From Eledone cirrhosa (taxonomy: Eukaryota), in assembly GCA_964016885.1 (NCBI GenBank), contig CAXHJY010000565.1, positions 124,001-188,000 of the forward strand: DNA of 64,000 nucleotides, read 5' to 3'. The notes beneath the pieces are model-generated. The model was not told the origin of the DNA. It did no database searches and worked only from the letters and a program-made list of their open reading frames with translations. Positions 6,276 through 43,119 of the stretch are shown here, piece by piece. Within the stretch, counting starts at the first letter, position 1. Every line of letters starts with the position of its first letter. The translations under genes and the position numbers were made by a program.

Positions 6276-6530
6276 ATATTATTCAAAATATTAATAAATG
6301 AAAAATATTCTCATAACCAAAATATATATTTTATTATATATATTTCAAAGGTAGAATGCTGTTTCATTTGAAATATGTATAATAAAATATATATTTTGGT
6401 TATGAGAATATTTTTCATTTATTAATATTTTGAATAATATTAAATACTCCAGATAAAAACTGTGGAGTGCTTCTAATCTATTGGAAAATTGTATTCGTTG
6501 AATAATCAACGAACCATATAAACTTTTGGT
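6276..6530. repeat. Fold-back of a truncated PLE-type terminal repeat
   Basis: Arms about 6276-6350 and 6368-6440 are reverse complements; each keeps only the GAAAT-ATRT-ATA 3' half of a hammerhead; flanked by (TA)n. Confidence 0.65.
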
Positions 6531-6938
6531 TTTATATATATATACATACATACATACATACATACATACATACATACATACATACATACATACATACATA
6601 CATACATACATATATATATATATATATATATATATATATATATACTCTCAGGTCTTGAATAATCACTCCTCCTTCTTCTGCTTATTATTTTTTCAGATAT
6701 TAACTTTGCCTTTCATCCTTACGGGGTCGATAAAATAAAGTACCAGTAATGTACTAGAATAATTGCTGGCCTTGTGCCAAAAGTAGAAACAATTATTTTT
6801 TCAGATATTTGTCCAACCTATCTCGTTTATTAATTTTTGCTAATCTATCTCCGGTGAAATTTTATTGTAAGTGATTTATAGATACAGTAGCTGGAGAATC
6901 TAATAATTGTTTTATTTTACATTTAAAAATATTATATA

Positions 6939-7857
6939 CTAGCAGTGGTACCCGGCGTTGCACGGTATAAGGTATTTTGGAACGCGGGCCGCCAACAGAC
7001 CTAATCGTGGAAAAACTGCATGCCTGGACAATATGTAAAGAAAATAAACCGAATACTCTGATGGCTGGATAATCTTTAACATTTTCGTCGATGAAGCAGG
7101 AAAAATGCAGGTTTTCACCTAATGCGGGCCCTAGAGGATGAAGAAAATGAATTTTTTTATGTGCATAATATGCCTTGAAATTTCGGGAAAATCGGCTAGA
7201 TGTAACGCCTCCAAAAAGACCTAAAAAGCTGAAAAAATGAAGTTTTTCACCTAATGCGGGCCCTAGGCCATAAAAAAGTAGGATTTTCTTTGCTCACGGT
7301 ATGAAGAAGAGACTGACTAATACATAGTTACAATTTCAAGGAAATCGGTCTGATGTAACGCCTCAAAAAACCCATAAAAACCTTAAAAACGCAGTTTTTC
7401 ACCTAATGCGGGACCTAGGAGATTAAAGAGTTGAATTTTTTATGTGTATAACACTCCCTGAAACATAAGTAATACACATGTAAAGTTTGAAAAGAATCGG
7501 TTGGGTACTTCTCGAGTTTTAGGGATACAAACTCACAGACACACACAGACAGACATCCTCAGGGAAGTGTCGTAATGCAGACAGCCAGACATACAGACAG
7601 ATATTATAAGGGCGCGACGTTATATGTATGTATCTATCTAAAAAGAGAAAGACTAAGAATTATAGAGAGAGATCGCTAAATCGCCTAATGCGGTCCCTAG
7701 GGCATTGAAAATTTGACATTTTTTTTTGCTGAGAACACGCACTGAAAGATAAGTATTACATGTGTAAAGTTTGAAAATAGTCGGTTGGGTGGTTCTCGAG
7801 TTTTAGGGATTCAAACTCACGCACACAGAGACAGACATCCTCAGTTATATATATAGA
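6939..7857 (-). mobile_element. Non-autonomous Helitron
   Basis: Minus strand starts TC and ends ccgtgcaacgccggg hairpin + CTAG; A|T target; internal subrepeats cctaatgcgg..cctag. Confidence 0.88.
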
Positions 7858-8084
7858 TTACAAAAAAAAAGAATATTACAAGAAATCCCATATTTACCAA
7901 TCTACCACCTACCACCACCACCTTCCGTTTAGTCCACATATCCCACCCACCCCAACACTCACTTATAAGAGTTTAACTAAATGCCCAACCCCCTCCCCCC
8001 ATTATTTGAGACCCGAGAGTATATATATGTTTGTCTGTCTGTTTCTGTCTATATATTTACCTGTCCGCCTGTCTTTATCTACCT

Positions 8085-40200: not shown

Positions 40201-41915
40201 TAACGATATGTGCTTTTACGATTCTCTAGAAAGGCCGGAAGATAGGTAAATATTGCTGATGAGATGTAACAACATCGAAACTAGTCCAATATTCCTTGTC
40301 TGGCTTTCTGGAGAATAGAGGAAAGGTGTTTCCTCGAAAACCAGTATGACTCTAAAAACCGGTTTGTCTGTGTGTTTACATACAGAATAGCTGGACACTC
40401 ACAGTAAAGTGTCCAGTGAAAAACTCGGTACATCTACATATGTACACGTGTGTGTATTCATATGCATACTAGTATTTCAGTATACATATGTGGATGTACA
40501 TTTTTAATTTAATTGTTTAAGCGTCAGTCATACAAAAGTGAGTTACAAACGAAACGAAATTTAATTTCGTTTCGTTATTTGTTTTTATCGTCTCCGCTGA
40601 ACCGGTACGTACTCACGCTCTATGCAAATTAGTCTGCCCACTACTAATTTTCATAGAAAAAGCATATAACGATATGTGCTTTTACGATTCTCTAGAAAGG
40701 CCGGAAGATAGGTAAATATTGCTGATGAGATGTAACAACATCGAAACTAGTCCAATATTCCTTGTCTGGCTTTCTGGAGAATAGAGGAAAGGTGTTTCCT
40801 CGAAAACCAGTATGACTCTAAAAACCGGTTTGTCTGTGTGTTTACATACAGAATAGCTGGACACTCACAGTAAAGTGTCCAGTGAAAAACTCGGTACATC
40901 TACATATGTACACGTGTGTGTATTCATATGCATACTAGTATTTCAGTATACATATGTGGATGTACATTTTTAATTTAATTGTTTAAGCGTCAGTCATACA
41001 AAAGTGAGTTACAAACGAAACGAAATTTAATTTCGTTTCGTTATTTGTTTTTATCGTCTCCGCTGAACCGGTACGTACTCACGCTCTATGCAAATTAGTC
41101 TGCCCACTACTAATTTTCATAGAAAAAGCATATAACGATATGTGCTTTTACGATTCTCTAGAAAGGCCGGAAGATAGGTAAATATTGCTGATGAGATGTA
41201 ACAACATCGAAACTAGTCCAATATTCCTTGTCTGGCTTTCTGGAGAATAGAGGAAAGGTGTTTCCTCGAAAACCAGTATGACTCTAAAAACCGGTTTGTC
41301 TGTGTGTTTACATACAGAATAGCTGGACACTCACAGTAAAGTGTCCAGTGAAAAACTCGGTACATCTACATATGTACACGTGTGTGTATTCATATGCATA
41401 CTAGTATTTCAGTATACATATGTGGATGTACATTTTTAATTTAATTGTTTAAGCGTCAGTCATACAAAAGTGAGTTACAAACGAAACGAAATTTAATTTC
41501 GTTTCGTTATTTGTTTTTATCGTCTCCGCTGAACCGGTACGTACTCACGCTCTATGCAAATTAGTCTGCCCACTACTAATTTTCATAGAAAAAGCATATA
41601 ACGATATGTGCTTTTACGATTCTCTAGAAAGGCCGGAAGATAGGTAAATATTGCTGATGAGATGTAACAACATCGAAACTAGTCCAATATTCCTTGTCTG
41701 GCTTTCTGGAGAATAGAGGAAAGGTGTTTCCTCGAAAACCAGTATGACTCTAAAAACCGGTTTGTCTGTGTGTTTACATACAGAATAGCTGGACACTCAC
41801 AGTAAAGTGTCCAGTGAAAAACTCGGTACATCTACATATGTACACGTGTGTGTATTCATATGCATACTAGTATTTCAGTATACATATGTGGATGTACATT
41901 TTTAATTTAATTGTT
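34222..41915. repeat. Head-to-head concatemer of a 466-bp hammerhead unit (about 9.2 + 7.3 copies)
   Basis: Period 466; inversion near 38507; HHR aatattg CTGATGA gatgt aaca acatc GAAAC TA GTC caatatt, 9 on - (first 34518-34562) and 7 on + (first 38851-38895). Confidence 0.96.
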
Positions 41916-42800
41916 TTTTAATTTAATTATATATATATATATAAGTATATAAATATATATATATATATATATATATATATATATATATATAAGTATATAA
42001 ATATATATATATATATAAGTATATAAATATATATATATATATAAGTATATAAATATATATATATATATATATATATATATATATATAAGTATATAAATAT
42101 ATATATATATAAGTATATAAATATATATATATATATAAGTATATAAATATATATATATATATATAAGTATATATATATAAGTATATATATATATAAGTAT
42201 ATATATATGAGTATATATATATATATAAGTATATATATATAAGTATATATATATACTTATATATATATATATATATATATACTTATATATATATACTTAT
42301 ATATATATATATATATATATATATATATAAGTATATATATATATATATATAAGTATATATATATAAGTATATATATATATATATAAGTATATATATATAT
42401 AAGTATATATATATATAAGTATATATATATATAAGTATATATATATATAAGTATATATATATATATATATATATATATATATATATATATATATATATAT
42501 ATATATATATATATATAAGTATATATATATATATATATATATATATATAAGTATATATATATATATTTATATATATATATATATATATATATATATTATA
42601 TATATATTTATATATATATTACATATATATATATATATATATATATATAAGTATATATATATATATATATATATATATATATATATATATATATATATAT
42701 ATATATATATATATATATATATATATATATATATATATAAGTATATATATATATATATATATATATATAAGTATATATATAAGTATATATATATATATAC

Positions 42801-43119
42801 ATTAATAAGAGGAATTCGAACTTTGTCTGATTTACTCGTTTTATTTACAATCCTTTAAAATATATAATGGTATTATAATGAAATAGTATGATAGAATATT
42901 AAATTCTAAGTGTTAATTGAACAAGTACTTTCATGCTTTCGCAATCTTCAGGTTCATAATATGTGGTGACAGTCAAGTTTGCAAATGCAAACTTGACTGT
43001 CAATTAACACTTAGAATTTAATATTCTATCATACTATTTCATTATAATACCATTATATATTTTAAAGGATTGTAAATAAAACGAGTAAATCAGACAAAGT
43101 TGGAATTCCTCTTATTAAT
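42801..43119. repeat. Fold-back (120-bp arms) with a - strand hammerhead at 42918-42956
   Basis: Minus strand: tgaac CTGAAGA t tgc gaaa gca t GAAAG TA CTT gttca; central hairpin 42967-43002. Confidence 0.85.

Follow-up and report, generated by a model that had tools for sequence, protein, structure and literature searches.

We analyzed a 64-kb stretch of DNA from Eledone cirrhosa (positions 124,001 to 188,000 of contig CAXHJY010000565.1, assembly GCA_964016885.1). We call this stretch the window, and we count positions from its first letter. The window is AT-rich animal DNA, dense in microsatellites and retroelement pieces. It contains short inverted duplications (fold-backs) beside (TA)n tracts, two long palindromic arrays, and copies of a Penelope-like element (PLE), and predicted hammerhead ribozymes occur in all three. 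We propose, with moderate confidence, that the fold-backs form by twin priming, in which both ends of the cut target would copy one RNA from two fixed start sites.

Fold-backs, hammerheads, and (TA)n tracts

A scan of the masked window, with the two arrays excluded, identified 10 local inverted repeats; 20 of 20 shuffled windows gave none. All seven of the short inverted duplications named in the original prediction were recovered, with arms of 62-144 nt that are 89-99% identical and spacers of 16-357 nt. The fold-backs at 27585 and 30526 belong to one family (family B), so the seven represent six families, about as many as had been estimated. The other three inverted repeats are at 54027 (a tandem of 26-nt hairpin units), at 56356-57475, and at 60836-61563, where two element ends face each other across (TA)n. 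The whole insertions are longer than their inverted repeats because they have a one-sided tail. All 11 insertions with two ends are lopsided: one arm ends at a short site (S), and the other continues through the tail for another 26-190 nt to a long site (L).

At 6279-6532, the arms (6279-6349 and 6367-6437) match at 70 of 71 positions across a 17-nt spacer; S is on the left, and the tail (6438-6532) runs to L at (TA)n. The insertion at 19117-19686 (site 19113) has arms at 19117-19178 and 19536-19599 (55 of 62 matches), a tail at 19600-19686, and a 357-nt spacer that holds a whole hammerhead on the minus strand (19282-19358). At 24185-24711 (site 24385), the arms (24371-24499 and 24539-24667) match at 122 of 129 positions and flank a 39-nt spacer with an imperfect hammerhead (core at 24525, plus strand); the left arm extends to (TA)n at 24185 and the right arm, whose outer part has diverged, to 24711. 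The fold-back at 29815-30162 (site 29910) has arms at 29912-30017 and 30057-30162 (104 of 106 matches, 39-nt spacer), a tail at 29815-29911, and whole, outward-pointing hammerheads on both arms. At 42800-43175 (site 42801), the arms (42801-42920 and 43000-43119) match at 119 of 120 positions, the spacer is 79 nt, and a whole hammerhead lies at 42918-42956 on the minus strand. This fold-back has a right-hand extension of about 56 nt, followed by a fragment of a long interspersed nuclear element (LINE) that separates it from the (TA)n at 43839. The LINE fragment (43176-43831), which has a likely 10-nt target duplication, interrupts the (TA)n flank.

Family B contributes two of the seven. The fold-back at 27585-27888 has L on the left and S on the right; its inverted repeat starts at 27650 (84 of 93 matches, 50-nt spacer, with a 54-nt skip in the left arm), and it has a whole hammerhead at 27777-27814 (plus strand) and half of one on the left arm. 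The one at 30526-30887 has S on the left and L on the right, a 16-nt spacer, and whole hammerheads on both arms, which match at 136 of 143 positions. A third and smaller family B fold-back, at 5678-5807 (L on the left, S on the right), is the smallest in the window; its 14-nt arms do not reach the ribozyme.

The two arrays are head-to-head tandems. The array of 310-nt units (31085-33892) has 3.8 + 5.3 units and ends that are 26 nt apart in phase; the array of 466-nt units (34224-41927) has 9.2 + 7.3 units and ends that are 70 nt apart in phase. The units differ at 3 positions in the first array (2.8 kb) and at none in the second (7.7 kb). At the right end of the 466-nt array (41900-41927), an 11-nt re-copied piece precedes (TA)n, as if priming had been aborted and restarted. 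The 310-nt and 466-nt units, and a 422-nt unit described below, resemble non-LTR retrozymes (LTR, long terminal repeat), which are also tandems of 300-470 nt units with type I hammerheads and are derived from PLEs (PMC7229834; bioRxiv 10.64898/2026.07.22.740005; published work is cited here for the parts covered). The seven small fold-backs are not tandems and so are not retrozymes by this standard. Head-to-head palindromic arrays and S and L ends are not described in the parts of the retrozyme literature that we covered.

Hammerheads were identified with a custom descriptor and a background of 50 shuffled windows, because Rfam found no hammerhead at any of the seven small sites: its hammerhead matches were confined to the units of the 466-nt array and fell short of the gathering score, and several of the small sites scored weakly as microRNA precursors. 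Our descriptor has 39 matches in the window, versus a mean of 0.5 per shuffled window. These hammerheads are predictions from a sequence motif, and their self-cleaving activity is putative. Each fold-back had been described as having a whole or partial hammerhead near its center. The whole motif is present at 5 of the 7 sites (19113, 27585, 29910, 30526, and 42801), but at 19113 and 42801 the ribozyme is on one arm only. The other two sites have partial motifs. Site 24385 has the core, a 4-bp stem I, and a palindromic stem III (background of 0.1 per shuffled window), but its stem II lacks closure and its free fold is not a hammerhead. Site 6279 has just the 3' half, on both arms; because such halves are common by chance (18.7 per shuffled window on average), its identification rests on homology to the whole motif at 60864. 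In family B (5678, 24737, 27585, and 30526), the hammerhead has a U3-A8 core, a variant already reported from Schistosoma PLEs (PMC4209133).

Most of the fold-backs were said to lie in or next to (TA)n, and this is borne out: for 6 of 7, an end of the inverted repeat is within 15 nt of a (TA)n block, versus 3.5% of non-TA positions. (The inverted repeat of 24385 is 45 nt away.) Counting the tails brings 12 of 14 ends to within 15 nt, a partly circular figure because the ends were placed by eye at TA. The outer ends also match the TA pattern by 2-8 nt, for a total of 24 nt over 6 sites versus 11.6 expected (P = 0.016). The ribozyme strand points outward, as had been noted, at all five of the small sites that can be read on both arms and in both arrays; these represent 6 independent families, and the probability of this pattern by chance is 1/64. 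Fold-backs without hammerheads are not equally common in (TA)n within the window, as just one of them (56356-57475) touches it.

The hammerhead lies 50-230 nt upstream of the sites where the tails and arms start. It is a marker of these fold-backs and not their cause, because most arms run through its cleavage site. We had considered a link between the junctions and ribozyme cleavage and dropped it: most arms cross the site, and only the right arm of 42801 starts within 2 nt of it.

A Hydra-type element and the sites S and L

One PLE copy lies at 57708-60972 on the plus strand. It is 5'-truncated and frameshifted, with a frame for reverse transcriptase (RT) and endonuclease at 57708-59348, a long 3' region with a whole hammerhead (60864-60929), and an S end at (TA)n. 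A second copy (61436-64000, minus strand) has an S-type end that meets this (TA)n from the opposite direction, and it extends past the window. A terminus of the same type at 29030-29605 (minus strand, without a second arm) has its L end at the left (TA)n and supplies native sequence that spans S and the tail.

In both of the longer copies, the encoded RT-endonuclease is frameshifted. When the window pieces and 12 relatives were scanned directly against Pfam, neither RT nor GIY-YIG was matched. The window frames at 57708-59306 match P0001, P0002, and P0004, and the profile of these can be aligned over 560 columns, with a probability of 98%, to a family in which members match RVT_1 and GIY-YIG. 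The window translations and the alignment of the relatives have a CxCX5C linker, no CCHH cysteine pair, and CxxC and CxH near the end; the RWK and DKT motifs are present in the relatives, and the corresponding part is absent from the truncated window copy. Hydra-clade PLEs are described as having the same C-terminal endonuclease and cysteine motifs, canonical hammerheads, and insertion into (TA)n (PMC8557442), and nearly all Hydra-clade families are reported to insert there (PMC8557442). We assigned the element to the Hydra clade by motifs alone, as its probable place; an earlier label of Neptune-like was wrong, as the motifs fit Hydra. We found no relative of this protein with a solved structure.

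This assignment covers the copies at 57625, 61436, and 29030, and by DNA similarity the fold-backs at 6279 (tail similarity z = 8.3), which is thus a relative of the Hydra-type terminus, and, weakly, at 29910 (tail z = 2.5). The other families are not covered: family B, 19113, 24385, 42801, and the arrays have no PLE coding match, nor do any of the tails or units. Fold-back families other than 6279 and 29910 would be passengers of the PLE machinery.

S and L are fixed sites within the two multi-copy families. In family B, 4 of 4 copies place L at one and the same base, S falls within 4 nt in 3 of 3, and the tail measures about 62 nt. The 57625-60972 element's family, to which 29910 was aligned by eye, has S ends that line up (60972 and 6279, with 61436 within about 10 nt), L ends that do likewise (29030, 57625, and 6532), and a tail of about 90 nt. 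All five two-ended insertions from these families (5678, 27585, 30526, 6279, and 57625) have one S and one L, which has a probability of 1/32 if each end chose freely. We did not find a tail sequence that is common to all families: 5 of 45 pairs reached z = 2.5, and four of these were within the Hydra-like group. Also, two family B arms in different fold-backs share their last base, which lies some 43 nt upstream of the ribozyme core (24950, 27743, and 30682). This shared stop is possibly a fixed 5' end of the RNA or a strong stop.

Furthermore, in 7 of the 8 cases that can be assigned, the tail is on one arm, and it is the other arm that extends further toward the element's 5' end and so holds the spacer (one-sided P = 0.035). 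These are 5678, 19113, 24385, 30526, 42801, 57625, and the 310-nt array, and the assignment at 24385 depends on an imperfect ribozyme; the eighth case, the 466-nt array, departs from the pattern. Three of the 11 two-ended cases were left out: 6279 and 29910, because the strand of the spacer cannot be assigned, and 27585, in which the L arm extends 4 nt beyond the S arm, but only by way of the 54-nt skip. With the tail and the spacer on opposite arms, each arm holds sequence that the other lacks, and one folded-back strand cannot give this pattern.

The insertion that contains the 57708-60972 copy, which lies beyond the coordinates of the original prediction, is the plainest case, as its inverted part is a tail alone (57625-57712, minus strand). 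It has its L end at the left (TA)n and starts 0-3 nt past the S site of the same insertion: the inverted piece begins at position 207 of the native copy, and the S end stops at position 206. The piece is joined, with 2-5 nt of overlap, to the sense reading frame from 57708. The insertion duplicates nothing, the hallmark of two primers that share a single RNA.

Proposed twin priming and its alternatives

We propose that the RT-endonuclease of PLEs would insert both PLE termini and short passengers with ribozymes (retrozymes). Both strands of the (TA)n target would be cut, a step for which there is in vitro evidence from another PLE. Each 3' end would then prime inside one uncleaved RNA, downstream of the hammerhead, one at L and the other at S, 26-190 nt apart. 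The S-primed copy would run ahead, and the L-primed copy would make the tail. If the L-primed copy stopped at S, there would be no fold-back, as in 57625; if it displaced the other strand and recopied the same stretch, a fold-back would result. The two cDNA ends would join by a 1-5 nt overlap or with a few added bases, as seen at the 6 junctions with known native sequence. The array centers have overlaps of 2 nt (310-nt units) and 3 nt (466-nt units), and the family B centers have overlaps of 1-2 nt or 3 added bases. If the template were a multimeric or circular retrozyme RNA, both copies could span many units and yield the palindromes of 2.8 and 7.7 kb. If the second priming failed, a plain 5'-truncated copy would be left.

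The original prediction had invoked two cDNAs primed from both ends of a break in (TA)n. The placement of tail and spacer on opposite arms and the tail-only inversion at 57625 agree with this; the two ends, however, would not be mirror images, as they appear to use two different fixed sites, and the reaction need not give a fold-back at all. The prediction also had one pathway account for structures from 0.25 to 7.7 kb; fold-backs are not its sole outcome, as 5 of 17 insertions have no second arm.

An alternative that we consider unlikely, but that merits discussion, is dual priming, a looser form of the original prediction: each target end would prime on its own RNA molecule, and the two reverse transcriptions would be uncoupled. 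This has been proposed for L1 (PMC2837659), and it explains long overlaps without strand displacement. It would also explain why sister arms differ at a T/A run in the two informative family B fold-backs (27585 and 30526). But all six family B copies of this run (5755, 24842, 27690, 27834, 30573, and 30769) have T as the long run when read on the top strand, whatever the orientation of the element, and we did not find a general T-over-A bias at other such runs in the window. Because the run tracks the top strand of the window and not the element, this difference may not mark separate templates. Uncoupled priming alone does not explain why 5 of 5 insertions pair one S with one L, why the inverted piece of 57625 stops exactly at S, or why sister arms share private changes in 30526 and 5678.

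Self-priming (snap-back), in which one strand folds, is copied, and the hairpin is trimmed and integrated, seems improbable. It was suggested for head-to-head PLE repeats (PMC3846280), and the tail has been attributed to trimming by the endonuclease (PMC8557442). The spacers are short (16-79 nt in 6 of 7), and there are small hairpins at the center of 27585 and in the spacer of 42801, which would suit a snap-back. However, such a copy cannot hold what its template arm lacks, so the 7 of 8 cases with opposite arms would require trimming that is always at S, and self-priming cannot produce 57625, whose inverted piece duplicates nothing.

We give still less credence to events after or outside of integration, such as separate insertions into one (TA)n, break repair that captures element DNA, or deletion of a palindrome's center. 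In their favor, insertions land densely in the (TA)n tracts of the window, one pair of separate copies is indeed face to face across 60971-61428, and a later deletion may account for the 54-nt skip in 27585. Yet insertions that occurred separately have an inward orientation and retain (TA)n between them, as seen at 60971, whereas the fold-backs have no central (TA)n, arms of the same family, and fixed end sites.

Fold-back reads are a known artefact, and the near identity of the array units and the top-strand bias of the (TA)n interruptions and the family B homopolymer hint at an imperfect consensus; nevertheless, an artefact of sequencing, amplification, or assembly is very improbable, as the small arms differ by 1-11% and end at element-specific sites, and the flanks are not duplicated. 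Finally, miniature inverted-repeat transposable elements (MITEs) with terminal inverted repeats also have short inverted repeats at TA, and 56356-57475 may be such an element, but the fold-backs have unequal ends, centers that differ among the three family B cases (instead of a constant interior), and arms that are PLE termini with hammerheads, so this explanation is scarcely credible.

Several observations weigh against twin priming from two fixed sites. In the 466-nt array, the L arm is the longer one, and if 27585 is counted as contrary, the opposite-arm pattern holds in 7 of 9 cases (P = 0.09). The tail-only inversion is a single example, the sister arms of 27585 and 30526 do differ, and for the six single-copy families, lopsidedness is also expected from random ends and is weak evidence. 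Target-site duplications and empty sites are not readable in (TA)n. Five of the 17 ribozyme-family insertions that lie wholly in the window have no second arm (2539, 18643, 19789, 26481, and 29030, although at 2539 and 18643 a tail-only arm could not have been seen); another 10 are fold-backs, 1 is tail-only, and 1 (24737) is in neither class. The one at 26481-27297 (plus strand) is a dimer of 422-nt retrozyme-like units, in (TA)n, with two hammerheads. Conversely, the inverted repeat at 56356-57475 has no hammerhead, and (TA)n on one side only. At 14 nt to more than 3 kb, the overlaps are far longer than is typical of twin priming in L1 (median, 22 bp), so the model has to invoke strand displacement on a large scale. 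RTs are capable of strand displacement. In L1, the longer copy comes from the 3'-most primer, which is opposite to the pattern here. Lastly, the start sites of the Poseidon PAc protein are not homologous to the target, versus the short overlaps here (PMC11167929).

In other respects, PAc is a close precedent. In vitro, it cuts and extends both strands of an AT-rich target, prefers uncleaved RNA, and uses two internal start sites that bound the tail (PMC11167929). It belongs to another clade, and in the parts covered, no pairing of sites with strands and no difference between strands was seen (PMC11167929). For PLEs with an endonuclease (EN+ PLEs), a TA bias, truncated copies in inverted orientation, and a one-ended tail have been described, and the mechanism was called open (PMC8557442). 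These PLEs share with our insertions the head-to-head 5'-truncated copy, the one-end tail, the terminal hammerhead, (TA)n, and no readable duplication (PMC8557442, PMC3846280). They differ in that here we see mostly termini only, and in that tails are 26-190 nt here versus 30-40 in the published cases; and these papers ascribe the inversion to self-priming or to resolution by the endonuclease, whereas we read it as twin priming. In L1 twin or dual priming, both target ends also prime, and the inverted junction has a deletion or a duplication (PMC2837659; bioRxiv 10.1101/2024.08.27.596794). Our insertions likewise join two pieces of one element in opposite orientations, and the 3' end of each piece lies at the target. 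But L1 primes at its poly(A) end and at a chance internal site, while here there is no poly(A) and both sites are internal and fixed. In L1, duplications are short and in the minority (283 of 1,703; bioRxiv 10.1101/2024.08.27.596794; PMC2837659), while here they are the common result. The proposed process works like L1 twin priming but is not the L1 case.

Judging from the parts of the literature covered, the inverted terminal copy of PLEs, the one-sided tail, TA targeting, pairs of hammerheads on opposite strands (noted in Schistosoma at 100-700 bp apart; PMC4209133), and L1 twin priming are already published. We did not find twin priming applied to PLEs in the literature covered (older PLE reviews, the original L1 paper, and supplements were outside its scope), and hammerheads are not mentioned in the covered parts of a paper on Octopus vulgaris repeats (PMC13282606). 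What this analysis adds is a sharper and testable mechanism, coupled priming at two fixed sites; for the most part, the insertions show known PLE anatomy at high density.

The origin of the tandem and inverted structures of PLEs and of the one-sided tail was described as open (PMC8557442), and the later steps of integration were called unvalidated (PMC11167929). The pairing of S with L, the rule for tail versus spacer, and the tail-only inversion are signatures that could separate twin, dual, and self-priming in any PLE-rich assembly. We suggest more tentatively that programmed twin priming, by a two-headed RT-endonuclease complex on one RNA, might be the usual route of PLE integration. If so, the one-sided tail, the inverted pseudo-LTR, the sub-kilobase fold-backs, and the multi-kilobase retrozyme palindromes would be products of one reaction, and their sole difference would be the distance over which the trailing enzyme displaces the leading copy. 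(TA)n tracts are fragile, and on this view PLEs would keep supplying them with new, near-perfect palindromes. Repeat libraries may file such fold-backs as MITEs or as hairpin RNAs.

Other repeats in the window

The remaining inverted repeat, at 56356-57475, has equal arms of 189 nt with 34-nt sub-repeats and a cysteine-rich reading frame inside. This frame had no Pfam match and no longer relatives (relatives of similar length were not searched for). The element is possibly a DNA transposon.

The insertion at 24737-25603 combines a family B L end, with a whole U3-A8 hammerhead on the minus strand (24874-24911), and a Penelope-like RT fragment on the plus strand (25356-25565) that ends at (TA)n. 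About 400 nt separate the family B end from the sense RT fragment, and there is no inverted repeat. The RT fragment is 83% identical to a named Octopus bimaculoides protein, and its relatives carry a linker other than CxCX5C. We considered 24951-25345 as the endonuclease end and rejected it, as tblastn and profiles gave no significant match; we therefore kept this insertion out of the twin-primed count. The stretch at 24951-25352, which has no protein match, may be untranslated element sequence.

At 19789-20118, there is an older relative of the 310-nt unit (74% identity, 1.1 units) with an S-type end at (TA)n and no second arm. Partial repeats at 28019-28791, 2078-2317, and 44468-44524 are bounded by (TA)n without a passing hammerhead and may be decayed members of the same class.

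The interruptions of (TA)n at 25614-44006 and 52665-54005 are strongly one-stranded over many kb, which may reflect a consensus artefact, strand-biased slippage, or templated addition. Repeated elements at 6940-7844 and 15296-17423, and at 6126-6266 and 15958-16098, end in a hairpin and CTAG beside (TA)n; by this pattern they may be Helitron-like. At 52384-54327, also beside (TA)n, there is a partial tandem of an element that begins with 26-nt hairpin units. Finally, LINE-type RT frames and a mariner-like helix-turn-helix fragment are found at 3249-4787, 10988-14161, 49211-50783, and 46311-47102.

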